A stretch of DNA of 59,430 bases, counting the filler, from Sphacelaria rigidula (Eukaryota): the NCBI GenBank assembly GCA_964200075.2. It is 4 parts of 4 records of this genome, joined end to end, with 100 filler letters (N's around TTAATTAATTAA, not from the genome) between each part and the next. Parts side by side here need not be neighbours in the genome. Positions count along the whole stretch, not along the records: positions 29,771 to 44,550 come from CAXNAA020002050.1; 3 more parts are not named here. One strand, given 5' to 3'. The translations under genes and the position numbers were made by a program. This document shows, piece after piece, positions 2,810 through 59,400 of the stretch. The notes beneath the pieces were generated by a model. The model did not search any database and was not told the DNA's origin. It was given only the letters and a program-made list of their open reading frames with translations. Position 1 is the first letter of the stretch, and each line of letters starts with the position of its first letter.

Positions 2810-3140
2810 CGGATGTGGGGGTGTGCGGCGCTATTAGACAGTGGGAGCCTGGCGACGTTCATCCTGAACAAGGTATGGATGTCCATGGTGCAACATGGGG
2901 CTGGTTCTGGTGACGCGGTGCGGAACATTGATCCCGTATCATGGGGTATATTTAATGGTGTTCCTCTGAAAACGACTTCCCAGGTGCGCTTGAATATTCG
3001 CTTCATTGAGGGTGCGCGCAAGGGTCGGGCCTCGAGCACGAGTGCTTGTTTCGCGGTCTATGCGCATGTCGTGCCCTACGGTACCATGTCTTTTGACTTA
3101 CTGTTGGGACGCGATGGGTTGACTCAATTTCCTGTGCGAT
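2810..3140 (+). pseudogene. Retroviral-type aspartic protease
   Basis: ALLDSGSLATFI and DLLLGRD motifs in ORF 2495-3445. Confidence 0.85.
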
Positions 3141-3743
3141 TATATCGTGGTGTCAGTGAATCTAGAACGATCAAGTCGCTTAAGGTGGCCTCGCAATCTC
3201 CAGGTCCCACTGCGGTTGATCGTTGGGTCCAGAACGCGGTGGGTATGATTGAACGAGCGTCGGGACCAGACGAGGAGGTGGTGGTAATCTGTGCGGGTGA
3301 GTCCGATCAGGTAGTGACGCAAGAGTTGACGTGGGGTTCCCGTTACACTGCAGTCGCCGAGCGGGTCTCCTGCTCCGCAAGGTTCGTACTATATGAGTTC
3401 CCAGCAGGGTTGGCCCCCCTCCGAAATGGTGGTGGATGCCGGTGAATCAATTATTTCTTTGAGATGTACGGGTTTCGAGGGTATCGTGGACGTGCCGGCG
3501 ATGAAATTGGGTAGGGCAGAGTTGCCTCTGGTACCGTGTTCGCTGAATGATGCAGAAATTTCCAGACTACCAACCCCGGTGCCCCCTGGTGTGTTTGTTG
3601 TCGAGACGGAGGTATCGGCTCCATCAGACGAGATGTATGGAGACTTAGGTGCGGATAAACGCGTGGCTTTTCGGCGTATGTGGGATCGCCTCCCGGTGCA
3701 TTTGCGTAGTATAACTTTCGGGTTGGAGGACAAATACTGACAG

Positions 3744-4579
3744 GTGGAGGCTATCGACAAATTGGCGGACGTATTGTGCAAGTTCTCGCATCGGTTTTCG
3801 GTTGACAAGATGGATTTAGCGTATTGCACGGTGGACCCTTTCAAAATTGAACTGAAACCCGGGTCTACTCCCATCAAGCAGCGGCCGTACCGTCACAATC
3901 CCGCCCTGCAACGGGAGGTGCAAGTGGAAATGGACAGACTCTTGGCTGGTGGGTTGTTGCGCTCTTATTCCAATTGGAGTTCACCGCTGGTGGTAGTAAA
4001 CAAGAAAGATGGCGGAATTCGTTTGACGTGCAACTATCGGAAACTCAACGAAGCCACTGTTATCCCTGTTTCGCCCGTCCCCACCATCGATCAACTTTTG
4101 GATGAACTGGGCGGCGCGAAAGTATTGACGTGTTTGGATATTCTATCGGGTTATTTCAACGTCTCGATCCATCCAGACACCATCCCCCCCACGGCCGTGT
4201 GCACGCAGTCAGGTCTGTACGAATGGCTAGTTATGGCTATGGGGTGCAGCGGTAGTCCGGGTTGGTTCCAATCTATCGTGGCGAGGGTGTGTGAAGGGCT
4301 GGAACGGTGCCGCCTTAACATTGATGATATCTGTACGTTCAGCTCAAATGGGGCTGAACATGTGAACGACTTAGCCGCTTTTCTGGAACAACAGACAAAA
4401 TTTAATTTGAAACTGGCGCCACAAAAAGCGCATGTGGGGGCGCGAGAAACGCAATTCCTGAGTCATCACATCTCGGCCGACGGGATCGCGCCCGGCTCTA
4501 AGAAAGTGGACTCGCCGCGATTAATGCCTATGCCGACCAATGTCGGTGAGCTGCGTTCGCTCTTGGGGGGGTTAAGTTA
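3744..4579 (+). pseudogene. Reverse transcriptase (Gypsy type)
   Basis: PIKQRPYR, SNWSSPLVVVNKKDGGIRLTCNYRKLN, LDILSGYF, GLYEWLVMAMG, and a degenerate YxDD (NIDD). Confidence 0.93.
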
Positions 4580-5164
4580 TTGCGGAGGTTTATAACCAAG
4601 ATGGCCGCTCGTACCAAAGCCATTAATGGATTGTTAAAAAAGGGGGTTGAGTTCACGTTCACGCCAGAACATGAGGCTACCGTTCGCGAAATAGTGGACG
4701 ATTTGCCTGGCACTAGGGTTCTGGCGTTCCCAGACTATGAGGGTGCTGCGTCTTGTGGCCGTCCTTTTATGTTGGTTACTGATGCCAGCAAGGAGGGACT
4801 GGGGACTGTGGTGGAACAGCGCCAACCGGACGGTGCGGTGCGACCTTTATACTTTTTGAGTCGGAGCACGTTGCCGAATAAACGAAGCTGGACGGCCACT
4901 GAGTTGGAAGCGGGTTCGATCGTGTGGGCAGTGAAGAAAAACCGTCCGCTGTTTTATGGGATGCCTTTCCAAATTTATAGCGACCACCACCCTTTGCGCA
5001 ACTTTTTAAGCTTAGCAGAGAAGGTGCCGCGGGTTCAGCGTTGGCACTATTTTCTTAGCGCGTACACGTACAAAATTTTCTACAAACCAGGTGTCGCTAA
5101 CTCCAACGCTGACATGGGGTCCCGTCTGCCGCAAGCTGATAGTCCGGAGGATGTTAGTGGGTAG
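4580..5164 (+). pseudogene. RT connection and RNase H
   Basis: LVTDASKEGLG, ELEAGSIVWAV, FQIYSDHHPL, RVQRW, YKPGVANSNAD. Confidence 0.92.
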
Positions 5165-5979
5165 TTCCAAATCACCGACCCTGCCGATGTCGATGTATAC
5201 TCTATTGGGGCAAGTGGTATCGTGCCTCGTGACTTTGAACGGCACCATGGTTCTGGTTTGGATGGGCTCCCCGGTGTGTCAGGCTCGCCTCAGGGTTCCA
5301 GTTTGGATGGGCTTCCTCCTCATGGTGTAGTTCAAAGGGGGGGGGGAGAACACCCGGACATGCTGCTGACACTTTCAGAAGTAGCGGACGACGAGTGGGA
5401 TCAAATTCAAAATACTCTCAGGCAAAAACGGTCGATGACAGTCTGGAAGGGTCCGGAAGTGGTAAGATATGACTCACGACTTCTCCTCCCAAGGGTTACG
5501 GATGTGGTGTGTGGGCAGTGGGAACCGGGTTTGTGCTTACATGCTTGCCCGGTTACTGAAGTGGGAAAATATTTATAACACGAGACGACGGGCTCGGACT
5601 TTTTGGTAATCACGGACGGTGGGGCTGGGTCAGCCGAAGGTGACGGTCTGGGTACTCCCGCGCCCACATTAGAGGCGGCGGAAGCATGCAATCTTGGAAG
5701 GCGTTTGTGTGCCAAGTTAGCGGGTGACTGGGTACTCATCCACAGACTGATTTGACTGCGCGTACGACTACTATGCATCTCTTACAGGGGACAACGGCAC
5801 TCACGAAGGAAGAAGAAAAACCAGTGGGTAGTGGTATCGATGTGAAACAACTAAGGGCGTTGCTGAAACAAGGAGAACTGTTTGAGCTAGCGAATGGTAG
5901 CAAACTGTTAGTGAAAAAGTTGACCCCTGCGCCTTTGAATTCGGAGGACCGGAACCAGGGGGGTATTTGAGCGATACCT

Positions 5980-7200
5980 CGGGGACGAACCTGTGCGAAC
6001 GTATGTCCCATTGATGCTGAGGCCCTGGGTGATGGATCAGACGCACAAAGAGGCAGTGCACCTTGGGGAAAAAGTGACCCTATCGCTGCTGCAACGGTAT
6101 TATTGGTGGGTAGGGATGAAAGAGAGTGTGAAATTCTGGATTAGACGCTGTTACTCATGTCAGGCCAAGAAATCTGATCGGTACACGGTGCGGTGGCCTC
6201 TAGTCTCGCTGCCACTACCGAGTCGACCAGGGAAAATGGTAGCGTTTGATTTCCTTGGCCCCGTGCCGACAATAAAGAGGGGTAACAGACACATCTTCCT
6301 CATGGTGGATCTATTTAGTAGGCACGCGGAAGCTTACGCGATCACCTCTGAAGAGCACTCGGCTACCGGGTGTGCTGCGATCATCGTGGGGGATTATGTG
6401 CCACGATGGGGTTGCCCGCACACTTTCTTGTCGGATCGAGGGGCGGAGTTCACTTCCGCGGTGTGTAGGTCGGTCTATGAAATGATGGGTGCGGTAAACC
6501 GGTTCACGAGCTCGTACCACCCTCAGACGAATGGGATGTTGGAGCGGTTCAACCACACTTTGTGTCAAATGCTGTCTTATTTGGTGGTGGACGATCAGAG
6601 CAACTGGGATGAGTCCTTAATGCATGAGATCTCAGCTTACAACAATAACATCAGTAGGGGTACCGGGTTGTCTCCAAATCAGGTACACATTTTGGACGGT
6701 ACCCGCGCATGCCCATGACTATTCTGGAAGGTAAGGGGGTGCGGGGGCACCAGAGTTTGAAGGCCGATCAGTTGGATTATCTCCAGCTGATGAGAGAACG
6801 GCAGGTAAAAGCGCACGAGTTGGTGAGGCAAGAAGATTTTTTGAGCAAAGCAAAACACGAAGCCAAGAACCAGGGTATTGAGGAAATGGCAAACCGCCGG
6901 TGGGTAAGGCGGTGCAGTGGGTATTTGTGTATCATGATAAAAGCACCATCACCGCGGGGGGGGGTAAGGCGGTGCAGGTGGCGTCGAGTACAGCCCGGAA
7001 GTCTTTGGCGCTGTCAGCAAAGCTGGCTCAGTGTTGGACGGGGCCATACAAAATTTTATTCGTAGGACCGGGGGTAACCTCGGAGGGTGAACAAGTGGGT
7101 AGGAATTTACTGTTGCTGGAGATTCGACGAAACGAGCCAGGGGTCAACATGAATTCCAGGGTGTCAGTGGCGAGGTGTAAGAGGTGCTGCAACCCCCATG
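5980..7200 (+). pseudogene. Integrase (HHCC, DDE core, GPY-like motif), frameshifted
   Basis: HKEAVHLG...CYSCQ, VAFDFLGP, MVDLFSR, LSDRGAEFTS, YHPQTNGMLERFN, WTGPYKI. Confidence 0.93.
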
Positions 7201-11679: not shown

Positions 11680-14289
11680 GTGGATGCCAACCGTGACCGT
11701 ACTCACGAGGATGATTCGCGGCACAGATCAAGTTCATCACACGTTCACTCGCGCTCGAAAAACACCGAGCATGCAACCGCGCGCACCCCTCCTGCTCCGC
11801 ATCCGTCACGCCGGCGTCATTTACGTAATGATAATACTGTACATGCTGACGATATCCAAAATATATTTTCGGACATGTCACCGGCTCTTGAATCCTCAAT
11901 TGAGGGATCCGGCCGTACTTCATCGCAAAACCGACGACCCGACAATGACCTCGACCCGCCGTCCCGCTCCGATACTGCGATTATTCGTTCTCTTCAACAA
12001 CGATTGACAGATCTCGAGCGAGAACTAGCAAAATCAACAATGGAGAACTCATTATCCACCGCCGCTGCCGCCAAGACCACGGTGGAGACCACAGGTGTTA
12101 CTGCAGCTACTGCTGCCGCCACAACTGCCGCTGCCGCCGCTGCTACCTTGGCCGCTGCGCCTTCTGCCACGCCAACTACAGTCACGCCCCCCACACCCGT
12201 TGTCCCCCCGTCTGCAGTCGATACCGCCGCAGATAGTGGTTCAACCATTGGCACGGTCGCGGATGCCCCCGTGCGCTCGCCCGCGTCTGTGGAGGATCTC
12301 CCTCCGCTCGGCGACGAGCATTGCCCTACCGGTCTTCTGTTGAGGCTGTTCAGGAACCACCCCCGTGCGGGACAACTGAACCTCATTGATGATTACGCCT
12401 CGCAAGCGCCAGCACTGGCCAAGGACGTACTCGAGCAACAAAGGGAGGCCGACGCCGCTGCGGCACGCGTCCTGAACACGCAGTCAAGCATCAAGACGTT
12501 CAGCGCCAGGCTGCACGCGCCTAGACAACAAACTCCGCGGCCCAACGCGCTCTATGGGAAGGCCGCACTGCTGCGTTGGTGGCTCAGAAGTGCGTCAAAG
12601 ACCTCGAGGATCATGTCCGCAGGACTGCCCACGACGCGGCCACGTTGGCCGCTCGCCTCACAAATCATCCGGCCTCTCCGCCGCCTATCAGCAACACGTC
12701 CGGTGGTCGCCCTTCCCGTCAGCCAACGGCCGACACGTCTACTTACGTGATCCCACGTAAGACCGACAATACGTCGTATGCTGCGGCCGCTGCCGTCTCC
12801 ACGACGGCTCCAGCACGCCCGCCTCGTGCACCTAGCTCGGCGGCCGATACCCGCCTGACGCCAGGTCTGCAACTGGCGCCTCACGAACGAGTGTGGCTTT
12901 CTCGTTCCGCGGCCGATTGTACCGACCCGTTCCGCAGAAGCAACCACCTCCACTGCTCCCGCCAGGCCTGGAACTTAATTTCGCAACGCATGCTTCACGT
13001 TATTGATGTTTACGTGGAGCAGGGCGGCTTCTTCCGCGACGAAGGGGTACCGGCACTCACCTTGGGCCAACTGGTCCTCCAGGTCACTATCGGGGATTGA
13101 CCGGATCACCAGCGTTACGTCCGCGCTGTCAACGATCTTTTTGCGGCGCTACGCGCCGCTTACACCTCTGACCCCGGCGCCACCATCGCCGACGATGACC
13201 AAGATGAAGATGGGTGGACTCCCGCAAGTGCCAACTGCAGGGGACAAAAGAAGAACCACCGGAGGGACGACGACGACAATGATGGAGGAGGCTCAAGCCG
13301 CCGCCACGGTGGTGGAGGATCCTCTTCGGGCGGCTCCGGACCGAACCTCCCGGCTCGCAATACCCGCGGCCCGCCTCGCTAGAAAACCGGAGGTAATTCT
13401 TCAGGATCTTCCGCGACAGGCTGGAACCGGTCTGGTACAGACCTGCCCCCCTCGGGTCCGGCGTCAATGGTCAAACGACTAAGGCAAGCAACAAATGAGT
13501 ACGCCTCCCCTCGGGTCCGGCGACACCATGGCAAGTGATCCCTAAATTGACTGATGTTTCGGCTCGCATTTTAGGTTTATCTGATACGGACACACCTGAC
13601 CGTTCATTGTCTTCTACTTCAGCTCCCGCTTTAGCAATCGCTGCGGCTGACAAAGAACGTTCCGAAGCTAGTGAAAAAGCAGCTTCCGATAGAGCCGAGT
13701 CTACCCGAGTAGCTGCAATACAGAGACAGTATATTCAGATGGATGTGAAAAATCTGTGGCACATTAAAAAAATGCCTGCTGCGAATAATGAAGATTCTTC
13801 GGTACAGTATACTTCTGCCCTCATCACGTCCATTCGCCGCACTGTTTGTAACATCCTTCACTTGGCGGATGCAACTGGCACCCAACGTTTCGAAGATTCC
13901 GATTGGGTAGAGGGCTGGCAGACTCCCTTGCATAAAGCATTGCATTTTCCATCAGCCGCCGCTCTCCCGACATCGCTGCTTCTTTACCACAGATCCTCGA
14001 CGGCTTCCTCGCCGAAATGGATCCGGATATTGCCAAGGGGAAGGCAGGCCCGGCATTGCTCTCTGATTCAGATTCGGAGAGGCGTTTGATAGGCTGTTTT
14101 GACAAAAGTGGCCAAGCCAGCGCCATCCAGAGGCTGAGTTCTTTTGCTGTCGCATCGGATGTCCCCTTCGCGGATTATCTCCGTGAATTCAATCTTTTGG
14201 CTTTTGGTACTACCGATGTCGGACGCCAAAACGGACCGAGCGATGCAATGTGTCAGACTTACATTCGTAATACACACTTGGACAAATAG
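11680..14289 (+). pseudogene. Fragmented gag-like polyprotein of a second retroelement
   Basis: Long low-complexity ORFs ending SFAVASDVPFADYLREFNLLAFG..G..PSDAMCQTYIR, which align by eye with the first gag (HFQAVEGTAFAEYLRSLRILV..G..PDQAQVQSAIK). Confidence 0.6.
13464..13503 (+). mobile_element. 40-bp 3' end of poly-C-associated LINE (copy A)
   Basis: tcaatggtcaaacgactaaggcaagcaacaaatgagtacg flanked by the duplicated cccctcgggtccggcg. Confidence 0.85.
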
Positions 14290-14787: not shown

Positions 14788-14887
14788 NNNNNNNNNNNNN
14801 NNNNNNNNNNNNNNNNNNNNNNNNNNNNNNNTTAATTAATTAANNNNNNNNNNNNNNNNNNNNNNNNNNNNNNNNNNNNNNNNNNNN
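14788..14887. other. Artificial contig linker
   Basis: N44-TTAATTAATTAA-N44. Confidence 0.97.
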
Positions 14888-14993
14888 CCCCCCCTATCGT
14901 AGGAAGTGCTCCGTCTCGAAAGGGATGCGTGGTCAATGGTCAAACGACTAAGGCAAGCAACAAATGAGTACGCCCCCTATCGTAGGATGACTC
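14888..14993. mobile_element. Right TIR of a Sola-like MITE carrying a 68-bp poly-C LINE insertion (copy B, 14905-14972)
   Basis: ccccctatcgtagga is duplicated (14890-14904 and 14973-14987) around the LINE end. The TIR finishes ...ggatgactc. Confidence 0.8.
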
Positions 14994-29670: not shown

Positions 29671-29770
29671 NNNNNNNNNNNNNNNNNNNNNNNNNNNNNN
29701 NNNNNNNNNNNNNNTTAATTAATTAANNNNNNNNNNNNNNNNNNNNNNNNNNNNNNNNNNNNNNNNNNNN
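29671..29770. other. Artificial contig linker
   Basis: N44-TTAATTAATTAA-N44. Confidence 0.97.
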
Positions 29771-32700
29771 GAGTTGAACCTCATTTGTTTTTTCAACCCC
29801 ATTTTCGAAAATCGGCTGTTAACAGGGGCCAGGTGGAGGGGTCGCACATGGGGTGGTGGCAGCTCCTGTTTTTCTCTTGGCAACGTTGTCGACCGCCTCA
29901 AGGGGTGGGGTGTTCTGCAAACCGCGTGAGAACAGAAGGCGGCCTGCCTCGGTCAAGGGCATAGTGCGTGGCGCAGACTACTGTTTACGGAGGGGATGCA
30001 GGAAAAAGTAGCTCAGCTGATACTGACTTCGTGGGGGTGGACATCGGTGTGAAGTGAACAAGCGCATCCGCGCTAATCGATACTCTGTCTCTACCACAAT
30101 ATTTTGATGGCACTTTGAAGCACTATTCACAGGGATACGGGCGTATGTACAGCATCGATCGAAACCCCGTTCGTCATCTGAGCAAAAAATTCTCGTTTTG
30201 ATGCAGTCGGGTGCGTATGGATTTTCAAGCTCTCGGTCCCAAAAAGATGAAGCAGCTTTGCAAGTGCGGGTCGAGTAGAGTATACTCGGTTGCGGGATAT
30301 TTTGAATGTCGTACTTACAGTACACGGATTGGGGGTAGGGTTTTAGAGCGATTTTTACGGCGACAAACCCTGGTTTTTACACGTGGGAGCACTTCAGCCC
30401 GTCTACAGGCGGTTTTCTCCCGTGGTTAGATTTTTTGGACCCCAGTCCGTTGGGATCGCGCTCCACTTACTTTGTGGGTAGGATTTCGTACCACGCAGTT
30501 TCGTCCCTGATGCCTGCCATAAGAGAAGATGCGCAAGTTTTCCCCGACGAAAAATTAGCGAAGCAAACCCGACTACTGTAATGCATCTATTCCTGTGCTC
30601 AACTCGTGCTCTATGCTGCAGGGTTGCGGTCGTAGCTGAGAATGATTTGGATGGAGTTTGAACCATCATGTGAACAGGTGTTTGAATCAAGCTCCATCTT
30701 TTTTCAACTATTTTTTTGTTTTGAAGCCCCGTTTCAACTTTTTTTTTAATCAGGCGTTCTTTATGCGCCTTATTCCCGTCCTTGTTGTGGCATTGTAGCG
30801 GTATCCCCCCACGATGCGCGCTGTCTAGCACGCGGGCGAGACGACAAGTTGGGCACCCGAAGTTTTGTCGATTATTAAAGAAATGCATATTTTCCTGAGT
30901 TTTTGAGTTTGGAGCTCACAACCTACACACCGACTGCACGAGTCACCATCCCTAATCGACCACGTCAAAACGTTCACTCTCCACAAATTCGTGTCGGCAC
31001 AACGGCACAGCTTTGAACGAGGTGGGAGAGACGCTGTCAGAACGGAACAATTACGATAAACTTTATATGTTCATGGGGATCATCGGTTCCATACAAGATC
31101 GCACGAAAAAAATAATGTCGGAGCGGAAGCGATTGCAGAGGGGTTTACGAAGGTGAGTGGAAATCTGAGAACGTGCTCTTTTGGAGCTGGGTGGACACCG
31201 ACACGTTGGAATGATCTGTTCTACTTGTCGGGTGAATTCCAGGACATTTCCTCGGTCTCCGGTGGCCGCAGTTTCTATTTTCGCCAACCAAGAACTTGAG
31301 TTCAAGAACAGTCGGGAAACGGTCAAATACCGAGAAATTCGCCATATTTTTCTGGATTTCACCCTTCCCGGACGAGAATTCTTCTTTGACCAAAATAATA
31401 ACTGCGGCCACCGAGGAAGGGGGAAACGTCTAGGGCCCACCTCAATGCGTAACGCAAATCATCGCAAGGAGTTAAATTCCCACTTCAATGAGTGACGCAA
31501 ATCATCGCAAGGTGTCAAATTCCGCCTAGCTCTCTGTTGAGGCGTGGAACTATGCAAGAGTTATAACAGGGCAATTTTCCGGGTTTTGATTTCAATTTGT
31601 TCTCGAGTAGATGGGAGTATATCGTTTCACGGGACCAACACTGCTGCTGTACCGCATTGTCGACTCCACGAGAGTGTGGCGTGCACTGTATGACACCGCC
31701 CATGATGCTACACCCTACAGTACGCTCCGACGCGGCAATCGGCTGCAGGAAGAAGACATACCCCTGCCCTTTCGGTTCTCGCTTCACTAGTTACCAGGGC
31801 TCGGGTGTGTGGATATGTTAATATCCACGCGTGAGCGGGGGTGACCAGCCCATACACTCCGCCCCCCATTGCGGCAACGTACGAGAAGCTGAGGATAGTT
31901 GAGGTTGATTGATTCGGATCTGGGGTCAGCGGACCACTTCCTTTGTGCGATCATTTTTCACTCTCACTGCTTACACCCACGGTTTCCGAATACGTCAAAT
32001 GAAGATACTAGAGAACGGTTGATGGTGTTGAATTACGTCCGATTGCCCTGCCTGAACTCCGTATTGTTCGTCCACTTCGCTCTGTCAGCGCGTGCGGGGT
32101 AACTTGAATCGCGTGACGATGGCCCGAGCAAAAACAGAAATGTTCGACAGTAACACATGTTTCCTACGTCCGCCAACGCGTGCCGGCACCCCCGCCCCCT
32201 CATGAAAACGACAGCTGCATGTGCGGGTCCCGTCCATGACGACTCTACGGCAATGGAAAAGAGCGGTTGCGTCGAGATCGCCAGAAGCGATGAAGACCAT
32301 CGCTTGGGCATTTCAATGCGACAACCGTGGCGTTGACTCGGGAGCCATATCCCTGGCTTTTCTCAGAAGCAAGCAGTACGCAGACCTGCATGATAAACCC
32401 CAGGCCCAATCCATCGCGATCAACATGCTCGTCAGGTACACACCACCCGTCTAATGCGGCTAGATAATCACATGACCCTTAGTTTATCGCATCTTGTGTC
32501 AGGGTCAATCGCTGGGGATGTCGACGTACGATGCATCGTGTAACGCACCCGAACCCGACGCCCACAAAAACACAGACGCCGACTGTGCATCGTTGAGGCA
32601 CGCGCTGGAGCGGCCACCCTCTGATCACACACCGCTCAACATGGATAATGAAATCGCTCATTTCACATCGGCGATGATTACCGTTTTCAGACGATAATGT

Positions 32701-33208
32701 TTTTCATCAACATCGGACTCTCGTACATTCAAGATCCCGTGGAAGGGTCTACGAAAACGAGAGCACCAGACAGAGTTGCCGGTGGGCGGGATATCAGTTC
32801 CGCCATCCGCGGTTTCCCTTGGTTCCGTCATGCAGCACCTAACGGGTGAAAAGTCTTATGTACTCTTCACAGCACACATTATATATTCGCGCTGCCCGCA
32901 GGTTCCAAACGGCGAACAAAACGAATCCTAAAGCGAGTGAATGGGGGCGTATCTCCACAGATGCACAAACAGCCGCAACCCTCCTGCAGCGTTCAGAGAG
33001 GCAGATCCCTCGTGAAGCGTGGACCGACGTCTTCGAAGAGTAAGTTTGCATTAATTGTAACACGCGCGTCGATTGCGGTGGGCCGTGACTGCTGTCGTAG
33101 GCTACAGTATTTCGGAAGCAAGGATCGCGCGTGCAGCACATGTTTGTGTCACGCTTAGACTTGCGCCCCTTACTCTAGCAACCTTTCTGGCATCATTCCA
33201 CCTTGCAT

Positions 33209-33685
33209 AAAAAGCGTAGCGTTTCAGCAGGTGGCATAGATAGCGCAGCGTTTCGGCAAGTAGCGTAATCGATACTAATTTTTAAATGGGGGGCATAATC
33301 GAGCTTAAATTCTCCAGTAGAGTTGGCAACAATGATCTAAATGTCGACGTGGTGTGATATGTTGGGGTGGAACTCTGCTTTCATCGACCGCGGCCGGGTC
33401 TGATATACCAGTCATTCAAACTGCAGGGTTGACTTTCGTTTCTTTGTTTCACTCCATATATCTAAACATATATTCACAGCGTAGCGTATAGTATGCATGT
33501 AGTGATCGGTGGGTCTGCATCCGGTCAAAAATGGTGCTTGTTGGATATTGCGAGCATAATTGAGCATAAATCCCATCTTGCGAGCATAGATCGTCGAGCA
33601 CATATTTTGTGAAATTCGAGCACAGATTGCGCTCCATGAGCCGAATCTTTTGTGTAACTACTAGCATTACAAAATGACTTTACTA
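33209..33685. mobile_element. ~477-bp insertion interrupting an exon
   Basis: Flanked by a GCAT duplication (33205-33208 and 33686-33689). Removal gives the in-frame DNLSGIIPPC-MRGKSAATL. Confidence 0.6.
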
Positions 33686-36600
33686 GCATGAGGGGCAAAA
33701 GCGCTGCAACACTCACGGGAGGCATTTTGCGCTCCGCGAACATCATCGCGACTAGGGTTGCTCGCGAGTTGACTCGCGGCACATACCGGCTGGAGGATTT
33801 CAAGCTGCACGTCCCGGACTTCATCACATCAGTAGACAACAGCATAGAAGAGACACGGGCAAGCCTGCCCGAGGAAGAACGGAACGGAGCAGCCATGAAG
33901 GCGTTCGAAGATGTCTGTCTCGACAAACTCCATCGGCGGCTGGACCTGGTACGTGACCGACACACAAAAGCCAAGAGTTAAATGTTAGATAGTGGGTAAT
34001 TCGGGCGATAGGTCGCCGAGACGATACAAACGTAAGGTGGATCGGACATGCTGCTGTGATAAATAAATCCAAATCGCGCAGAACGGGCTTGCGACGAGCG
34101 AAATTGGCGCATGCCAGTCATGGGCACAACAAGGATGGCACACCCACGTGATCAGGAGACAAGTGAAACATTTCCACGAGGTTGTTCACCTGCATCTTCA
34201 ACCACGGCCTGTTTTCGCAGAAAGCACAAAGAGGGGCCCTGAGGCGGTACAACGATAGCTGGAGGAAGAGGTGGGACGACGCCAACAACACCATCGCTCG
34301 CTTGAAGTTGGCGAACGCGGGCGACGAGGAAGGCGATGACGAGGATGCTGGTGAATCGGAGGAGGATGACAGCGATTGTCAACGACCGGCTGACGGCAGC
34401 CGCAAAGACGAATTGTGTCCCTCGTGCGACCCATCATCATACGTCAGGTGAGAAGGGATGGAATGAATCAACACGCAAGCCGTTTCGACGGTGCCGAGCA
34501 CACCAGTTGACCTCCCGAAGTACAATGCTACCGCTCTAAGATTGCCACGTGTAATGATTAAAACAACAATCACCTTACCTGGAAGACCGCCAACCGCTCG
34601 ACACTTTCATGCCGTCCTCGCAATGGCAGATACCGTTGCGTACACTGCGGGATGAAGTACCAGACCTTTTGTGAGCTGCTTGTGCCCGTCTCCGAGGATG
34701 CATCTCTTGCCGAGAGGAAGCTACGTCTCTGCCTTGTCTGCGAGGACGAGCCGGGGCGCCAAAAGAGGAAAGGGGACAGAACTGACGGGGTCGGAGGCGG
34801 AGGGAATCCTAAAAAGAAGGGGAAGAAATCGTCACAGGCAGGGCAAATGCTGCCCCCTGCCGGTCCCACCGTGGAAAGCAGAAGGTGCGAGGATAGATTG
34901 CCGTTGTGGAGACTGTGTCGTCGGCTAAAGCTTACCTTTAGATCGCTCCCTTGTACGACGGTTGTGACAGCATGCATAAGTCGGTCGACATGCGACACTG
35001 GGACTGTCAAGCGCAGCTGTTTATAGGTTCTCCTGCCTTTCGTTCAACCTCGCGCACTGCTCGACTATGAAAACCTGACGGTGCAGCCGCCAGCTTAGCC
35101 ACCGCAGTGGAACGCACGCCGAAGAATTACGCCGGATTGGCCCCCACCCCAACGCCAGCTCAAAACCGCCAAGCCAAACAATGAATGGCTATCTACCACG
35201 TGATGTTCGATTCCACGGTGCATGGAGGGCCTTGTTTACTCGACACGGACGAAAACAAACAGAAGCGTGAATATTCCGATCTGCTCAATATGAGGATATT
35301 TTATCATATCGATTTTACGTGCCGGTTGTTGCCCCCCCCCCCGAACCAACCACTTTCTCGGGAGGGGCTATATCGGAGACACACGCTACACCCCGCGACG
35401 TGCGGACGACTAGCGCGCAACGAAGGGAAACTGGCGATGCTATTGCGTGCTTACGACATGATATTGTACAGGGCTTATCACACGGGCATACACGAGGATA
35501 ATCTACTCCGCCGCCACTGTGCTCTTATTGACCAACAAGAGCCACTCCCTGTGAAGAGACCACCGAAGCTTATCATAGTCTCCATCGATGTCGAGAAAAC
35601 AATGCTAAGCACGACACATGATGACAACAAGGGATACTTCAGGTGGTTCGTTGAAAAGGTACTGGAAGTCTTGCAGCCGATGGGCACCATCGTCTTTGCA
35701 GTCCCGCGGCCCTGGAATCGACACGAACATCGTATCCAAGGTATCACGGTCTGCACGGTTCGTGACAGGCACAACCGCGGCATCGATGTTGCTGAAAACA
35801 GGGTAGACACATCTGAGTCGGTATTCGCCACACGAGCGCGGATAGGGTAAATTGTGTGCTTCGTTTCGTCCGTCACATTGAATCGCCGCTTTTCTACATC
35901 CTTCACTGCTCTGATACGGCATCCTGTGGTGATGTTGATACTCCCCTGGCACCCCCCGAACATCCACCATCGCTGCGATCCACCGCGGTGCGCACCCCTA
36001 GGCAGGCGCGATTGAAGCCGACCCTTCAATGGTGGTCGAAGACGACTACGTGCTAGTAGAGTACTCCAGCCGCCACGGAGGCTCCCGAAAGAAACACGAG
36101 AGGTATCATTTTTACCCTCACATGGAGGGCATCTTAGTGGCACACAAGCAACCGAGCGAAGAGAACAAAACATTCACGGTCAACCCGAGGGTGACCTTCG
36201 CCGATCCCTACGGCACGAACACCAACGGCAAAGTGCCGGAATGCTGGCAAACGATGGGCGGGGAGCCAGAAGACAAGCTCGCGTACAAACAGGGCGGGCC
36301 TGTTGGGGGACCCGTCAATTCCTTCCCGCCGCGGGTACTGACTACGTTCATCAACAGGTGATAACATACTTTCTGACCCCGTATCCTCCTTCCTATGTGA
36401 GACAGTATGCACTTTCGACGATCGTAGTGGAAACTTCACTTCCGGTGGGCGGGTGGCGTTGGAACATGCCGCGCCGTGAAAGACATGAGGTGAGTCGATG
36501 TCATTGTAGGCCTTGTGGCCAACAACACTTCTGGATGTTGTGCTTTTGGTCGAACGGAAGGGGGTCCGAAATACCAGAGAGATCCGAGGCATGCATGCAC

Positions 36601-37441
36601 GTGGTATTTAATACATGTTGGGACAAGTCTCAGCGAAAGCTTCGAGCGGGAATCATCAAATTCGAAATGCTCCCCACAGTGATTAGTTGTGGTGAATCTT
36701 TCATGACGTCGGGATCATCGTACTGTCATCGGACAGGTTCACCCTGGCAGGAGATGCCGTGATGGGGATTGGGGTGGAGAGCACGCAGCTACTGGAAGTC
36801 GCTCTCGAGCTTGGTCGACCCACGGAGCTCTTCCTCCACAACCGCGGTCTCGCGACCGAGGTTGGGGGCCGAATGGAAAGGGCCTTCCGAAAGGCCTTCA
36901 TGTCGGGGATGTTCAAGGCAAGCCCCCGAAAAACCGAATGATTGCCCGAGGTATCGCGATCCTTATTCCGCGTCTTTGGCCGATGCGCAGGCACGGAATC
37001 GGATTTGATTACTCGCGACTAATATCTGATGTGCCAGATGAAGCTCACACCAATGATCCCGACCTCGCGTGTGTTCATGCGTCACCTTTGCCAGCAGTAT
37101 GATATCAGCGGCGAGGTGTACGTGGGGCCGACGCTGCTCCCATCAGCGCTGCCCGCAGACACAACGCCGGCAGGATTGCTGGTTCGGGGTCCGGGAGACA
37201 CGACCGAAAAGATCATGACGGGTGCTGCACAGACTTTCGGCTACAAGCTGGAGGTGAGAACAGCGCTGCATGTGGGGCGATAAGGACACTGTGACCCCGT
37301 AGTCCTCTTTTCCTTCGCCTCTTACCGCCGTTTGCGTCCTGATATGTACGTGAGTGTCACATGATTTGAAGGGATGTCGGGGGTGTACGAGAAAAGAACA
37401 AAAACGAACACCTGTGAACCCTCCACCCCCCTACCCGAACG

Positions 37442-37796
37442 AAACGACTAAGGCAATCAACAGATGAGTAGCCCCCCCCCCCCTACCCGAACGGGACGTG
37501 GTAAAGGGGGAAATCCGGGACGTGAGCAAAGGCGGTATGCGATCGTATGATGCATTAGACAATAGTGAGAAAACGATGGCTCTCCTAGGAGGTAGATGGT
37601 GGCCAAAGACGGTGAAACAGAACGGGGATGCAAAAGGTTCTGGTCCAATACGTGGAAAAAGGTGGTGAGCTCGTGAAGGAACGTGATGAGCGCAAAAATA
37701 TTGGAGGGTGTCTATTAGGAGTAGGAACGGTGCTCCGTCTCGAAAAATATGCGTGGTCAATGGTCAAACGACTGAGGCAAGCAACAAACGAGTACG
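37442..37796 (+). mobile_element. Two nested poly-C-associated LINE 3' fragments (copy C 37442-37471; copy D ~37489-37796)
   Basis: Both end gagta(c)g followed by a C-run. TSDs cccccctacccgaacg and ccccctaccc. Copy D encodes a decayed ORF end: DALDNSEKTMALLGGRWWP...RNGAPSRK.CVVNGQTT.ASNK. Confidence 0.8.
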
Positions 37797-39624
37797 CCCC
37801 TCCCCCTACCCCCCGAGAGGTCCAAAAACAAAAATGGGACATAGGTGCGCGTTTTGTTTTTTCGTGCACCGTTGGAGATGTAGTTTTTTCTTGCTGCGTG
37901 GAATAGAGTTCTTGCTGCGTGAAATAGAGTTCTCTTTCCCTCCCGCTTCACCGCACTTCATGAAAAAACAGAGTTTTTCGGGTCCATTTATGGGCGCGTC
38001 CACATCGCGATGCCCGGGGGACATGTGGTTTCGGGAACAACTACACATCCGTGGTTTTGAGACCCCTGTCGAGCACTGATTCCAACTACCGCCCCTCCTC
38101 CGTATCCCGAACTGGCTTTCTCATGTTTGTTGCCGCTGGCCGTCTCTACCTTGTCCACCGTTGATTTCGGTCGCAGCGTTCGACGTTCAATCAGGAGAAC
38201 GAGCTGTTCCTCATCACGAAGCCTGGCCAGCAGAAGATCGTATACCCTGAAATTCCCTTGTGGGGAAAGTACAGGGTATACACCACGCCCAGAGAGGCTG
38301 TATATTCGATACCTCAAGAAATCCTGGATCAGCAATGTACTCGCATGGTATTGATCGCATCCAACAGACAAATCAGGCGCCTCGTAGAGCCCGGCAGGGA
38401 AGCCTGCCAGCCGGAAGCGGCCCTGTATTTGGAGGTCTCAGACACTTGCCCATTCTACCACTTGGAAAGGGATACGGGCGGGGAGGGGGTTGTGATGGGG
38501 ATCAGGTCGAAAATACCGCACAATGGCCTCAGAGACTCGTACATTACCGCTGCGATAGGCGGCGCAAATGGCACGCAGCATGCTGTAATAGCCAGTGTGC
38601 AAGAGAGTCGAGAGAGGAAAGGGAGGCTCGCCGCGAAGCAGCCTATCGCGGTCACTCCCGGGGATTTGGTCGTAGGTGGGCCGGGATTCGAGCAAAGGTG
38701 GCTGAAGGTCAGACCCGACACGGATCGAGAGAGGTTGGAGGACGAGGTGGCCCCCGATGATGATGACGATGACTGTAATACTGGAAGTGGCGGCGATGGC
38801 AATGATGGTGGTGGTTGCAATAGCAATAGTGATGACGCTGAAGTCTCGAGTTGCAGTCGCGCAGTTGGAGAGTGAAAGCAAAAAGTTCACATACAGGTCG
38901 GGATGCGGACGCAAACGTACAGTTCAGGGCGGGGTCGAGATCCTGCCATGTAGTATGATGCGGTGTTGCGATGGTGTCTATGACGGGACGGTACGAAGCG
39001 ATATTGAGGTGGATGTCAACGATTTCTCTTTCGGCTGAGACATTGCCGCCTCATATATGCTCGAACCGGATTGGAAAGCTCGACGGGTATTTGCAGTACG
39101 GTTGAGTCGTGAAATAAAATATCAATGTTGTGCATCGGCCGTCAAAGAAGGAGAATATTCACGCTTTTTCATGCCCCATTCTTCATGAAAGCTCAATCAT
39201 CCGCTCGGCACATCACTGCGTTGGCAGTGATATCCCCGCAGCACATCACTGACGAGCAACTTGACGACCGAGATTTTTGTCTGGACGCGAGCCTCGAGAC
39301 AAACAGGAGCGAGAACATCGTCGACATTTAAACACACGTTGTTATGGTCCGTCGCCCGCAGCTAACCAGGGATCGGCAGCATGTGCAACCACGGACGCAC
39401 TTCCCACTTCTCCCCAAAATTACACATGAGTAGCGTCGTGCGGTACTCTTGAGGGCTTCTTGATATCCAACGGCTAGGGTCTTCAAACCTCATTTCATTG
39501 ACGAACCTCATTTTATAAAATATCCTCTTAGATGATGAAGCACCCAGCGGGGAGGGAAGTTGAAAACGGAGATGTAACTTCATCAAAAACGACATGAGGC
39601 TGTCTACCCACGCAAGCAAACACT

Positions 39625-40172
39625 AGATGTTATATTTCACAGCAAACTCTTGCATCGGTATCTTCAGTTTCACTCAAAAACAGGAACATAAAAGCGACAC
39701 GGACCGTGGAGTCGAACCCGACCCGACGCCACCACAACATCGGCGTCAGCCACGAACCCCTGCCCCCTCCCCTCCACCTTCTATCCCCATGAAAACGCAA
39801 TTTGTACTTCTACATCAGAGACACAATATCGATTACTTATCGATTTATGATACAAATCGCAAAAATAAAAAGCTTGATTCCCTCATGCTTGGTTGCACGT
39901 TTTCGAGCACGCAAAAGTTTGCTGATCTCGTCTGACACGAGTCGAGTTGCAACCAAACTAGGAACAAAGGCTACCCACCCACGCAGGCAAATATATGATG
40001 TACAGTTTACAGCAACGCCCCGCGTCAGTACTTCTAGTTCCACTCAGATACAGAAACATGGAAGCGACACAGCCCATGGAGTCGAGGCCAACAGAAGGCC
40101 AGTGCAACGTCGACGTCAGCAGCGACGAAAACGTTGCTACCAACGCCCTTCCCTCTCCCCCTCCGCCACTCT
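39625..40172. repeat. Diverged ~370-bp-period duplication in the hAT 3' region
   Basis: gatgt..atttcacagcaa...cactca.a.acag.aacat..aagcgacac...tggagtcga near 39626-39716 and 39997-40086. Confidence 0.6.
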
Positions 40173-40173
40173 G

Positions 40174-43100
40174 TTAGTCCTCCTTCATGTACATCTCATC
40201 AGCAGTAGGTGCCTCCCTGTTGTTCAGGACGTCGAATTCAGCTTCAGCGTCCACCAAGCCAGACTCATGTCCTTTGAACCGCGCGGGAATACATGAACGG
40301 ATATCTTTAGCGGCGATCCTGGGAATGTCTCCGTACGCAGGAATGTGCTCGTAGTTGGCCTTTAGGAACATAACGATCTCCACCCAGTATTTGCCAATCC
40401 GACTCTGGTTCGTGACAAGCAGGTTACCGTAAGCACTGGAGTCACGCTCAACCTGCGCAGCGGCAGTCCGACTGCCAAACACCTGCTGCGCGACTGGCGC
40501 GAGGTAGGGGTACTTGACCTTGCCTTTTTTCCTCCACCAGGGCAACACGGCCTTGCACTCCAACTGTACAAAAAACGAACGGACAGGGAGGCAGTGATTG
40601 CATGTTGCACATAGCAAACAAACACAGCATAATGGCGAGGGATCTTTCATCAGATGAGGCTCATCGACTACCGCTCATTTACTGATCCCCGAGGGACCTA
40701 CCCAAGGTGTATTAAATGTAAACGTTTACACAGAAAAGTGGAAGCAGAAAAAAAGAATCAGAGGGAACTGGAGCAACAACGACAAAAACAGGCAGGAAAG
40801 GAGGGGGAACAGAGCAGAACTTCCGAAAACAACAGAAAAAAACAGGAAAGGCCAGCCTCAGCAGCATGGCTTCAGGTAAGGAGGCAGTCCGCAAAACAAA
40901 GCGTCGTGCGAAGCATTGTACATCACGACAACCTAATCGTCCCCCCTCTGTAAACGTGCTCCAGCGGTCGTCCGTCACCCTCGCAACCGCACTTGGAATT
41001 ACACTGATCTCGCTCGTGTCCATGTACAGCGCTTGATGGCGCGCGATCTCATCTTCACAGCCCGCTCCAACAGGTTGTCCTCCTTGCGGCCCTCCTCGTC
41101 GCCTTCTTCAGCACCGCCAACGATGGGACTCCTGCCGAAGGAAGAAACGTTACTGCGGGTGAGAGTGCGTGAGCCGGGTCTACAAATGCATAAAACACGA
41201 GATCTTACAAATCGGGGATGGGTCTTTTATTGGGGATGAGAAACCCGGATAATGAAAGCTTTCGTATTCACACCACATCTTCGAAGTATGGTTCCACTTC
41301 TTCACCTAATGATAGCTATTGACAACTGCTACACGCAATAGAAATTTGGATTCTAATCGCCGAAATGTTGGGGTCCTAGGTGAAAAACCAATTTTGAAGA
41401 ATTTCGGGTGTCCGAACGGACGCCATAAATGGTTCCGAAATTGTTTTTTTTGCTAGAACCCCAACATTTCGGTGATCGAAATCCAAATTTCTTTGGCGTG
41501 TAGCAGTTGGGACGCCAAAATGGTTCCGAAATCATTTTAACTAGGACCCCAACATTTCGGTGATCAAATTCCAAATTTCTATGGCGTTTAGCAGTTGTCA
41601 ATAGCTATCAGTAGGTGAAGAAATTGAACTATATTTCGAAGATTTGGTATACATACGAAGATTTTCATTATCCGGGTTTCTTATTCCCAATGAAATATCC
41701 ATCCCCAATTTGTAAGATGCCGTGTTATAAGCGCTTGAGTGACTGTTGGCCTGCGGGGCCGGCCGATGCAGCGTGCAACTGCAGCTCTGTCGCAGCGTTC
41801 ATGGCCCTCGTTTTGATGTCGATCCAGCAGTGGGCACGTTTGGTCAATACCTCCTTGTTCGACGCAGGGATCAAGCCAGCTTTGTCGCTGGGCAGGACAC
41901 CCCTGTCATTTTCAGTCAGTCGGACGGCCTCAAGGTATGAACCGTTGTTGTACGGTGGGGTGAGAAGCACGGCGGCATCGCGGTAAGGGAAAGGATCGGG
42001 GGAGGTCGTGCCCCACACCCGCCCGTACAGCCGCGAAACAAGGGTTCTGCTGAGCTCTTCCCGGGTATTGATGGCAACGCCATGCAAGTTGTCCGGCGAA
42101 AATATCTTCGAGGGTAGCGGTGCTTTGTCCCCGTTCCGCCCCTGGCGTCCCTGCTCAGCTTCCGGGGAACCCGGAGCGAGGGGGAGGTCGAACACTCTGA
42201 GCGGCTTCGTGGGGTCGAGCACCTCCACCTTCAATTCAGCGAAGGCCATGTGTACCTCTACAGTCATCGGCACGTCGCCCTGCTGGTCGTCACGCGTAAT
42301 GGCAGAATGGGGTTGCTGCAGCGAGTACAGCTGCAGGATGGCGTCCTTGTTGCTGCCTCTGTCAAGAGGGTACTCCCCGCCTTCGTCGACGTGGAGCTTC
42401 CTGAGCACGTGCCACAAGCGGATAATGCGCTCCAAGATGCGAACCAGACTCAGCCATCGCTGGGGCGCATGCTTGGTGATCTTGAAAATCTCGTTCAGCA
42501 TCTCGAGCTGAAGCTCCTCGAATCTCTGCTTGAACGTGCTGGACTGATTCACCCTCGCAGCGGACTTGATGACGAGCTTGATGACGTCGCGCGCGGCCGG
42601 TTTCTTGGACTTTTGAGGGTCGGCCCAGGTACCAAAGGCGTTTTCGGCGGCCTTGTCGGTCAAGTGGCAGGTGCACCAATCCCATGGGATGCCTTGCTTC
42701 CTCGAGAGGATGTTGGTGCATATGGCCTTGACGTCGGGGCCACTGTTCGTTGTCCCACCAGCAATATCGGGAAGCATTATCCCGTACTCCGCTAGCGTCG
42801 CCTTGAAAATGGTGAACAGGATTTCGTTGACCCTTTCCGCTTATTGTACCTCCGCCGAAGGGGCGTAGTGCTTGACCTGTACAGAAGAGTATAAACGACA
42901 AACAAGGACCAAAGGACAGCGAGATGAAACGGCCGTCACGATTTGAACATCACTACCAACTTCTATCAGAAGCAGAGTAGGGTTGCACGCCAGAGGGGGG
43001 AGGCGACGAAGCAATATCATCCAATTTTATAACGGCAGTCATCTCGAAAACTGGAGAGGGTGCCGTGGAAAATATAAATATATTTTCCAAAAAGGAAAGG

Positions 43101-43640
43101 CGCGAGGGGTGCGCGAGGGGGGGGGGTACAACAAAACAGCACGAGCGGGTGATAACACAAGCTATTGATGTATTCTATACTCGGCATAAAACCTTTCTGG
43201 CAAACCGTTATCCTATGCATTTTCAGAGCTCACCCAACAACAGTAGATGTATATTATACTCGAGGTTCCCAGTACACTTAGCAGTGATTCACTGCCAAGT
43301 GTATTTCATTTACTGATCCACCGCTACGGATCCAACCCAGGGATATTCTGAGCCCCAAAACGGTGAGGCTGGGGGCCTGCTCGAAATTGAAGTACTGACG
43401 CAATTCGTTTTCATCCGCGAGGTCTGTGGGGGGTATACCCACACCAAGAAGAACGTCTCGGAGATTTAAGTTGCGGTTCACATAGAATCCGTGGATGCCA
43501 AGACATTTGCGCGCAGACACCTTGCAAGCCCACAGATCAAGCCCGTGGTGAAAGATGGCCAGCGGTGCCGCCCGGATATCTTCCAGCATGTTCCCAACCA
43601 CGACCTGCAGGGCATCAGTTGCCGTAATACCGGTAGTCTA
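40174..43640 (-). pseudogene. hAT-superfamily transposase, spliced and degenerate
   Basis: LDLWACK..LGIHGFYV (first Asp), TTNSGPDV, WCTCHL (CxxH), QRWLSL..ILERI, and the dimerisation domain LPWW...KYPYLAPVAQQVFG..AAAQVERDSS. A TIR-like tagggtcttcaaac lies near 39475. Confidence 0.88.
41194..41726. mobile_element. Long-TIR non-autonomous DNA transposon inserted in the hAT ORF
   Basis: aacacgagatcttacaaatcggggatgg ... ccatccccaatttgtaagatgccgtgtt, ~190-bp inverted arms, ATAA TSD. Removal restores LKRL-CICRPGSR. Confidence 0.85.
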
Positions 43641-44489
43641 CATACCTTTGATATTCTAGCGGTTCTTTCGGTGTTTTTGCACTTGCCCGGGAATTCGAAG
43701 AGGCTATGTTGGCACTGTGAATTAAACTGCAAGTCGAATAACACGTGGAACTCCCGTTTGACAGACGCTCCTCTTTTGCATGTGTTTCGGCGCATTTGTC
43801 AATATGCAATGAAAATCACAGAATATGAAAGAGCAGTGACTCACGGACCAAATCTTCCTCACTGAGCAGAGCGGATTTCGCGCCCGGTAAGATATGCGAG
43901 AAGGAAGACGGCCCGCTCACCACATTTTCGACAACAAGTGATTGCTCCGCGGAGCATATATACTCCGTGAGTAACACTCAACATGTCCCGCTTCGTCCGG
44001 GTTTTAAGGAGCGACATGCCGATGACAAAATGAACCGAAACGACGCGAAAATGAGAAAATTCTTAGTATGCCGCACTGACCGTTGTTCACGGCTGTACAA
44101 GCTGGGTCAGCCGAGGACATGATTCTTGGCTTGATCACCATTTCGCGGCTGCGTGTCAAGAATCAGGAGTTGGATTGACACGATAAACACACATTATCAA
44201 CGCGTGGGAAGTGACCCGACTTCCCAGGAAAAGAGGAAAAATATCTAACAATTCTGGCCGCTCCGTAAGGCGGACCAGAATGTGAATACGGGAAAGTGTT
44301 TTTTTTAGCTTTTACGTCGTTGTATGCCCTAAAAAAAGCGAGCTACGCGATATTTGACATCCTTGAATGCTTTGCTGTCCTCATTGACGCGATTCCAGCA
44401 CACCTGGGCGTTTTTCCGAGAAAGATACTGTGTTGGTAAAAAAATACTGCGACCACTTCTCAAGCCATCCCCACGAGTATGTTATACAA

Positions 44490-44518
44490 GTTATATTATA
44501 ATTATTACAATTATTATA

Positions 44519-44550
<32 letters not shown>
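44490..44550. repeat. (TAT)n microsatellite at contig end
   Basis: Direct reading. Confidence 0.9.
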
Positions 44551-44650
44551 NNNNNNNNNNNNNNNNNNNNNNNNNNNNNNNNNNNNNNNNNNNNTTAATT
44601 AATTAANNNNNNNNNNNNNNNNNNNNNNNNNNNNNNNNNNNNNNNNNNNN
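44551..44650. other. Artificial contig linker
   Basis: N44-TTAATTAATTAA-N44. Confidence 0.97.
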
Positions 44651-59200: not shown

Positions 59201-59400
59201 AACATCCGATTATCCAGTTTGAGGATGGAGCTTTTCAGTGAAGATGGTGACCCGGAAAATTAAAAAAGTCGCATCCACACTAATTCTTCGAGATATGGCT
59301 TCATTCCTTCATCTGCTGGTAGCTATTGACAACTACTGAACGCCATCAAAAATTGGATTCCGATGACCGAAATTTGGGTTGCCTAGGTGAAAACAGCCAA
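59201..59400. mobile_element. Diverged left arm of the 41194-41726 TIR family
   Basis: tagctattgacaact...ttggatt....cgaaat.tggg...cctaggtgaaaa is shared with 41312-41386. Confidence 0.7.

Follow-up and report, generated by a model that had tools for sequence, protein, structure and literature searches.

A spliced, many-copy gene of the brown alga Sphacelaria rigidula predicted to couple a PHD-type finger to a very diverged PF01555-like methylase domain

The window analysed here is a stretch of 59,430 nucleotides from the brown alga Sphacelaria rigidula (GenBank assembly GCA_964200075.2), joined from four parts of the genome. Positions 29,771 to 44,550, which come from CAXNAA020002050.1, hold a chain of seven plus-strand exons (A to G, 33688-38875). 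The exons up to the first part of exon F are predicted to encode a PHD-type zinc finger followed by a very diverged methylase-like domain of the PF01555 type, and the gene is present in many copies. The features of the locus are given below, with F1 and F2 the two coding parts of exon F.

33688-33948, plus strand: exon A, with an ATG and a helical-looking N-terminus (87 codons); donor GT at 33949
34221-34447, plus strand: exon B, with an acidic tract and the first Cys pair (CPSC) of the zinc finger
34630-34884, plus strand: exon C, with the rest of the PHD-spaced finger and a basic tract with KKKGKK
35472-35740, plus strand: exon D', the putative N-terminal third of the methylase-like domain, with RPPKL at the place of motif IV
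36006-36357, plus strand: exon E, the putative middle of the methylase-like domain, to the helix before motif I (FPPRVLTTFIN)
36737-37253, plus strand: exon F, comprising F1, a stop-holding linker and F2
36737-36938, plus strand: F1, the first part of exon F and putative C-terminal third of the methylase-like domain, ended by TGA 36939-41
36939-37037, plus strand: linker in exon F, with in-frame TGA 36939-41 and TAA 37020-22; either the end of a first gene and a spacer, or a broken linker
37038-37253, plus strand: F2, the second part of exon F, with an in-frame ATG at its start
37254-38176, plus strand: intron F-G, containing a very abundant short dispersed repeat (about 37522-38023)
38177-38875, plus strand: exon G, with a conserved region and an acidic tail; stop at 38873-75

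The six introns joining these exons are all GT..AG and all phase-compatible (splice-site and phase check), and the third intron base is A or G in all six donors used. Joined from A to G, the frame has 859 codons plus a stop and is interrupted by two in-frame stops within exon F; up to the first of these (33688 to TGA 36939, exons A to F1) 522 codons are open. The first ~95 residues of a 221-residue open reading frame (ORF) at 35185-35850 are intron. The KKKGKK basic tract lies at 34810-34829 in exon C, and exon D' contains a conserved LHPxGT...VPRPW block.

A preliminary description of this DNA had proposed that short ORFs are joined by GT-AG introns into one long protein starting at 32221, with a PHD finger, a bacterial-type amino-methyltransferase region and a SET-like region. 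The joining was borne out by the six canonical in-frame introns, with joins spanned by homologues and contigs, as was the order of a helical N-terminus, acidic tract, Cys pairs (exons B and C), KKKGKK, methylase-like region (D', E and F1) and acidic tail (G). The single long protein is contradicted by TGA 36939-41 and TAA 37020-22, both in frame within exon F just past the methylase-like domain, and exons between 32221 and 33687 found no support.

With ORF 35185-35850 as query, HMMER was run against 1.84 billion representative proteins and gave 31 matches at E ≤ 1e-3, eight of them at ≤ 1e-10. P0021 and P0023, long or repetitive proteins with short matched stretches, were removed. In 29 of 29 retained homologues the similarity was confined to ORF residues 93-190, the borders of which are the acceptor and donor of D', and paralogues sharing these exon borders are 26-56% identical. 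The closest proteins are from S. rigidula (83-90% identity). P0024 runs unbroken from acidic tract through zinc finger and basic tract to D' (spanning B-C-D'), P0001 (89-90% identical) continues from D' into E, and P0037 covers the last 36 residues of F2 and continues into G. P0039 is 83% identical to exon E, and exon G has four homologues (53-85% identity), two of them from S. rigidula. P0001, P0024, P0035 and P0037 are unnamed protein products of this species. Four of the six joins thus have support from annotated S. rigidula proteins or from one RNA-like joint; the proteins are gene models, so they depend partly on splice-site logic. The E-F1 join has no bridging homologue and was inferred from phase, from a hidden Markov model (HMM) alignment that crosses it and from the exon-order test (see below). 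All relatives in the database are short fragments, and a word-indexed search for longer proteins containing ORF D found none.

The RNA-like joint (F-G, 37253 to 38177) is present in two contigs of run X6 and three of run X7; both were taken as RNA runs by guess, as no run is on record as RNA. In addition, an X6 contig fits from 34220 and is preceded by 70 letters lying elsewhere, which is consistent with the A-B join. Depth of X6 and X7 contigs was 15-40 over exons A-E against 2-8 over most introns, and that of the DNA-like runs X1 and X3 was flat there. Contig depth, summed over all contigs at least 90% alike, is a poor measure and gives no copy number; the pattern is a hint of splicing and expression. 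A candidate 5' exon at about 32215-32435 (ATG 32237, donor GT 32436) could be joined in phase to an acceptor at 33685-86, which just precedes the start codon of exon A. An X7 contig ending at 32437 fits from 32209 after 30 letters lying elsewhere, and an X6 contig passes unspliced through the donor. As a separate observation, a 781-base X7 contig fits 34699-35022 and 35040-35338 with ~160 letters between them in place of the 17 in the window; by this contig the window copy is without ~143 bases inside the C-D' intron.

The methylase-like domain was found by profile-profile comparison with two reference sets of PF01555, one narrow (E. coli YhdJ and 80 relatives) and one of 30 more diverse members from one bacterial phylum. 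When D'+E+F1 was aligned by hhalign with the 30 diverse enzymes, the probability was 80.3% (P 1.4e-5, score 42.6, 238 columns), and query residues 1-261 lay collinearly on positions 4-265 of the 268 of the template, running from the motif IV region at the start to the motif I region at the end. In 45 column shuffles the score was 13.8 ± 2.3 (maximum 20.0). The three exons aligned separately with consecutive parts of the template: D' with 5-89 (P 3.6e-4), E with 89-206 (P 0.1) and F1 with 203-265 (P 0.0088), and E+F1 together with 89-265 (P 0.0011). Five non-native exon orders scored 28.5-30.0, the reversed query 16.0 and exons A-C 15.1. An HMM of the 30 enzymes matched D'+E+F1 as a single target with E 0.009, the aligned stretch crossing the E/F1 join. 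In a language-model search of the ESM Atlas with exon E, the three best named clusters were all PF01555 (0.89, 0.89 and 0.88) and the ten best family-bearing matches all fell in one family or clan; with scores below the 0.9 mark, this signal serves as a lead only. We conclude that D', E and F1 together probably encode one complete, very diverged beta-class (PF01555, N6/N4) amino-methylase-like domain.

Several results weigh against this assignment, beginning with the curated libraries. Even up to E 10, PF01555 was absent from the Pfam results for D', E, F1, P0001, P0039 and P0024, in a search that mostly filters out weak matches above about E 0.1. Pfam, PHROGs and NCBIfam together gave only sub-threshold noise for the exons and their homologues, with no methylase, PHD or other family, and exon A had no Pfam match. 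The narrow YhdJ-type profile was matched less well (HMM E 0.17; hhalign P 0.024 for D' and 0.096 for D'+E+F1), the alignment being collinear nonetheless. Needleman-Wunsch global alignment against shuffles depended on the gap penalty (z 0.0 to 4.4), and the profiles were built on two sequences for E and on one for F1. Although the AlphaFold model of D' had a predicted local distance difference test (pLDDT) value of 83.4, fold searches with it gave no significant match. Among solved-structure sequences, the D' profile matched nothing but a T-cell receptor chain and a flavin reductase (E 0.06-0.1), and the exon E profile nothing but ribosomal protein L6 (E 1). A complex prediction with D', E and F1 as three chains scored 0.00, which counts neither for nor against.

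These misses, together with the non-canonical motifs IV and I described below and the modest ESM Atlas scores, would also be expected if D'-E-F1 were a new Rossmann-like or otherwise unrelated domain whose methylase likeness was spurious, being due to chance or composition. We consider this improbable. The collinear match scores more than twice the best shuffle, each exon falls on its proper consecutive segment with a high score in the native order only, the PP of motif IV and the GD...VA..LGR residues are at template spacing, and PF01555 was named independently by the ESM Atlas. The methyltransferase of the preliminary description was thus upheld as a probable PF01555-like fold coupled to a PHD-spaced finger, by profile-profile alignment and exon order, and qualified by the lack of a curated profile match and by the altered motifs IV and I.

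In beta-class enzymes motif IV is (D/N/S)-P-P-(Y/F/W), and motif I forms an FxGxG loop after GD.VLDPF. Neither the catalytic motif IV nor the cofactor motif I is present here in that form. The motif IV place reads x-P-P-K-L. Among 30 members of the family the first Pro is found in 21, the second in 26 and the Lys in 24, the first position is T, N or S in 16, and none of the 30 has the aromatic residue. Because motif IV is altered in all 30 members, the alteration is a trait of the family and not a decay of the window copy. SIDVEK was considered as the motif IV place and rejected, since hhalign sets PPKL on PPY. At the motif I place the window copy, which is the only sequence covering F1, has GDAVMGIGVES against gD.VLDPF.GSGT in the template and no FxGxG loop; VA..LGR (VALELGR) follows at template spacing. 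The domain may be non-catalytic or re-purposed to a changed chemistry, because Lys replaces the base-stacking aromatic residue across the family and the FxGxG loop is missing from the window copy.

PHD fingers have the C4HC3 pattern C-x2-C-x(9-21)-C-x2-C-x4-H-x2-C-x(12-46)-C-x2-C. In P0024 the spacing is C-x2-C-x9-C-x2-C-x4-H-x2-C-x19-C-x2-C, an exact C4HC3. The window copy has all seven Cys (exons B and C) and departs from the pattern at the His ligand, where it has Gln (codon 34661-63). Profile searches returned no significant PHD match: for P0024 Pfam listed none up to E 10, the sub-threshold rows being DUF6431 (0.0013), C1_1 (0.0027), ZZ and FYVE. Its best matches among solved structures were AIRE PHD2 (E 0.12, all ligands aligned), KSR C1 (0.82) and MLL3 PHD (2.2), none of them significant. 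The finger is therefore termed PHD-type by its predicted ligand spacing and not by profile membership. The window copy is probably impaired through loss of the His ligand. A decayed copy had been proposed before; the Gln at the His place and the two in-frame stops agree with that, and the altered motif IV, common to 30 members, does not.

The SET-like region proposed for the C-terminal part is unsupported by the comparisons made. No SET row was found in Pfam at E up to 10 for F1, F2, G, P0035, P0036 or P0037. Against a profile of 31 SET domains, all bacterial, F2+G gave P 0.38 in hhalign with a score of 12.1, at the level of its shuffles (12.4 ± 2.6). For F1+F2 the values were P 0.056 and 16.1 (shuffles 11.3 ± 2.0, maximum 17.9), and for F2 alone P 0.16. 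F1 matched SET (P 0.02) less well than it matched the methylase C-terminus. The alignment sets RHLC and GAAQTFGY of F2 on the NHSC and ELxxDY places of SET without significance, and this likeness is probably what was first seen as SET. The AlphaFold model of exon G, made from five sequences, was unusable (mean pLDDT 33.1). Exon G had no family match in Pfam, PHROGs or NCBIfam and no usable match in the ESM Atlas.

Given the in-frame stops, A to G might form a single gene or a pair. The end of the methylase alignment lies 13 residues upstream of TGA 36939-41, and summed depth rises steeply at about this place. In X1 it was ~1,000-3,300 over 32000-36517, 16,932 over 36769-37019, 57,189 over 37020-37270, ~125,000 over exon G and ~50,000-60,000 past the stop. 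The same steps were present in X6 and X7, and the summed depth of F2+G was ~20-60 times that of A-E. Two readings fit such steps: F2+G is a repeat gene of its own and of much greater abundance, or partial copies of a single element are strongly biased to the 3' side. We slightly favour two genes, the first ending at TGA 36939 and the second (ATG 37038 to 38875) belonging to a far more abundant repeat.

Three points tell against the split. F1 and F2 are in one frame; P0039 (E-like) and P0036 (G-like) each list a longest contig of 6828 bases and may lie on one contig; and the red-algal protein PAG2 is described as carrying PF01555 and a second domain, SET, in one polypeptide (bioRxiv 10.1101/2025.02.11.637652). 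They leave some room for a single gene A-G, a brown-algal counterpart of PAG2 with a PHD finger, a PF01555-like domain, a strongly degenerate C-terminal domain of the SET-like or another kind, and an acidic tail. In that case the two stops would make the window copy a pseudogene, unless an unseen intron removed them. A phase-0 GT..AG pair at 36861-37037 (177 nucleotides) would do so, although its donor, GTTGGG, is unlike the six used donors in its third intron base. The RHLC/GAAQTFGY likeness and the F1+F2 score, above the mean of its shuffles, point the same way, yet no SET score was significant and the F1+F2 score is below the shuffle maximum. Pfam found SET in none of five family members, F1 fits the methylase C-terminus at exact template spacing, and the depth gap between A-E and F2-G is large. 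Taken together, these points make a single gene possible but less probable, and the two-gene reading is retained.

The gene is one of many dispersed copies. All 30 bins of 32000-39500 were covered in X1 and X3 by many contigs, over exons and introns alike, mostly 90-95% alike; in X1, 13,929 of 21,191 matching contigs were only 90-95% alike. Both runs also have contigs in which 33800 is joined to 36614; the 2813 bases left out have ends (CA..TA) unlike those of an intron. By analogy with non-autonomous DNA transposon copies, this variant is interpreted as a deletion derivative without most of the PHD-methylase-like gene. Many copies including a deletion derivative were thus found, with summed depth again giving no copy number.

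Multiplicity of this kind might also arise in an ordinary, lineage-specific expanded family of host chromatin proteins that is immobile, the window copy being a paralogue amid unrelated transposon debris. Intron positions conserved across paralogues of 26-56% identity, the annotated gene models in S. rigidula, the expression-like depth pattern in X6 and X7 and the absence of termini or a transposase tied to the gene would suit such a family. It is nevertheless unlikely, given DNA-like contigs (X1 and X3), both near-identical and 90-95% alike, over exons and introns, the deletion variant in both runs, relatives that are all short fragments, as expected for degenerate copies, and published algal methylase genes of this type that are described as transposon cargo.

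Transposon remains surround the gene. A hAT dimerisation domain is encoded on the minus strand at 40177-40674 (Pfam E 6.1e-5, above cut-off), 1.3 kb past the gene stop. That the PHD-methylase-like gene is itself transposon-borne we infer; against it, no termini, target-site duplications or linked transposase came to light, and a repeat scan of the window found no inverted repeats bracketing the gene and hAT pair. The earlier suggestion of a transposon-borne gene was therefore kept in part: the gene is many-copy and lies amid transposon remains, so that a link is plausible.

The same description had offered a virus as the carrier. Adenine methylases are encoded by phaeoviruses that occur integrated in brown-algal genomes, and a phaeovirus-like insert of a giant virus with a viral DNA methylase could in principle account for a bacterial-type domain here. 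This is very improbable, as no relative was found in 2.9 million viral contigs (single-protein and alignment scans), the gene has six spliceosomal introns and there is no viral hallmark gene among the ORFs scanned nearby. Metagenome matches at four loci, with only 15-17 residues matched, were taken as spurious.

Other features of the window were recorded. The hAT remnant may extend to about 43640, and ORFs upstream of it (41728-42840 and 43281-43637) had no Pfam match. Two similar ~190-base segments, seen by eye, lie in tandem just before it (39598-39790 and 39960-40170). A 203-base inverted repeat pair at 41183-41737 (84% complementary, 149 bases apart), with a related copy at 59250-59393, resembles a miniature inverted-repeat transposable element (MITE). 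Summed X1 depth over the F-G intron repeat (37522-38023) was 1.9 million against ~2,000 for the neighbouring gene. Copies of this family (D4), 75-93% identical, are at 13437-13507 and 14906-14976, and it is probably a MITE-like element or one like a short interspersed nuclear element. The pol region of a long terminal repeat retrotransposon occupies 3741-6715 on the plus strand in three ORF pieces (RVT_1 5.6e-18, RT_RNaseH 7e-27, Integrase_H2C2 3.8e-15 and rve 3.5e-11). No RNA gene was found in 31000-41000 by ARAGORN tRNA and Rfam scans. Paired runs of 44 N with 12 bases between them recur about every 14.88 kb (14788-14887, 29671-29770 and 44551-44650; also noted at 1280-1289); they look artificial, and none overlaps the gene.

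The explanation we prefer, with a probability of roughly 0.6, is a many-copy, spliced brown-algal family with a PHD-type finger and a diverged PF01555-like domain, which is most likely a transposon accessory gene or a derivative of one. Its product would have a helical, acidic N-terminus, a PHD-type C4HC3 finger, a basic nuclear-targeting tract and the diverged beta-class amino-methylase-like domain. The finger may bring the protein to histone tails, and the methylase-like domain may serve chiefly to bind DNA or a cofactor, or may be an enzyme whose chemistry has changed. As an accessory gene, the family most likely travels with a DNA transposon or descends from one; red-algal PAG2 and the ParB-methylase gene of the Ectocarpus transposon Sola1-1 are models for this on their published descriptions.

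DNA methylation is thought to be minimal in brown algae. A bolder and rather doubtful extension is that the family is an expressed, repeat-borne and PHD-guided amino-methylase-like one in which the conserved (T/N/S)PPK marks not decay but a new active site or binding mode. If so, the protein would read histone tails and mark or shield the DNA of its own element by a chemistry unlike that of DPPY enzymes, or would be a pseudo-enzyme competing with host silencing. On either account a transposon would encode an epigenetic counter-measure, and would do so in a lineage reportedly without ordinary cytosine methylation.

Bacterial-type amino-methylase genes on giant algal transposons entered the literature only in 2025. 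To them the S. rigidula family would add a histone-reader (PHD-type) front end in place of ParB, Lys in place of the base-stacking aromatic residue of motif IV, pointing to a pseudo-enzyme or a changed reaction, and presence in a brown-algal order outside Ectocarpus. The whole domain family escapes Pfam, PHROGs and NCBIfam and is visible only by profile-profile comparison across spliced exons. The window copy is probably impaired, and the family is a worthwhile target; if intact members bind S-adenosylmethionine or DNA, they would give a direct handle on dealings between mobile elements and chromatin in brown algae.

Fusion of an amino-methylase to a chromatin reader is not new. The bdelloid rotifer N4CMT is reportedly a methylase fused to a chromodomain. 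Eukaryotic adenine methylases are reviewed by Iyer et al. as repeatedly fused to PHD, Chromo and similar readers, including fungal clade-4 N6A enzymes with PHD or Chromo and a chlorophyte-type Dam with PWWP and ZfCW/PHD-X (PMC4738411). The brown-algal family resembles these, as they are described, in combining a bacterial-type amino-methylase fold with a histone-reader module. It differs in its conserved non-canonical motif IV, with which it may be non-catalytic, and in being a repeat family and not a single-copy host gene; the enzymes described belong to other clades or keep their catalytic motifs.

Closer in host is Sola1-1_Ec32, a 21.5 kb Ectocarpus transposon with a spliced accessory gene for a 1104-residue ParB-like and N4C/N6A methylase protein, from a report in which giant Ectocarpus elements are described as carrying many accessory genes (PMC12477816). 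Both genes are brown-algal and spliced and encode a bacterial-type amino-methylase or its likeness; that of Sola1-1 is presented as a transposon-carried accessory that binds or marks its element. Compared by description only, the S. rigidula gene is unlike it in having no Pfam ParB in any exon, a PHD-type finger instead in the targeting role, and, as the sole transposase remnant nearby, one that is hAT-like and not of Sola1.

PAG2 has PF01555 and SET by InterPro and is described from giant Plavaka (EnSpm/CACTA), Mutator, Zisupton and Fanzor-bearing elements of red algae (Bostrychia) (bioRxiv 10.1101/2025.02.11.637652). The combination of PF01555 and SET in one transposon-borne protein, part of an architecture that the preliminary description did not recognise, was thus already in print. 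As far as the account of PAG2 goes, the two families share a eukaryotic, repeat-borne PF01555-type domain with a further C-terminal region; PAG2 copies are mostly degenerate with low transcripts, and action on chromatin or on the element's own DNA is proposed for PAG2 as it is here for the brown-algal family. The brown-algal family, again compared by description only, lacks a curated profile match, has altered motifs IV and I, an unsupported SET and an N-terminal PHD-type finger of which the account of PAG2 makes no mention, occurs in brown and not red algae, and has no linked transposase shown for the window gene. No report of a PHD plus methylase-like family in brown algae was found in the literature, and supplements of the two transposon papers may list such genes.

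Compared with bacterial PF01555 enzymes such as E. coli YhdJ, the domain order is the same, collinear over ~260 residues, and the PP of motif IV and GD...VA..LGR are kept. In contrast to them, the brown-algal domain is below all curated cut-offs, has xPPKL (30/30) for motif IV and GIGVES for FxGxG, and is spliced, many-copy and joined to putative reader and targeting modules. Genes of this general kind were thus known already. The present family is set apart by a PHD-type finger ahead of a PF01555-like domain, by an xPPK motif common to its members, by the absence of a curated match and by its Sphacelaria host.

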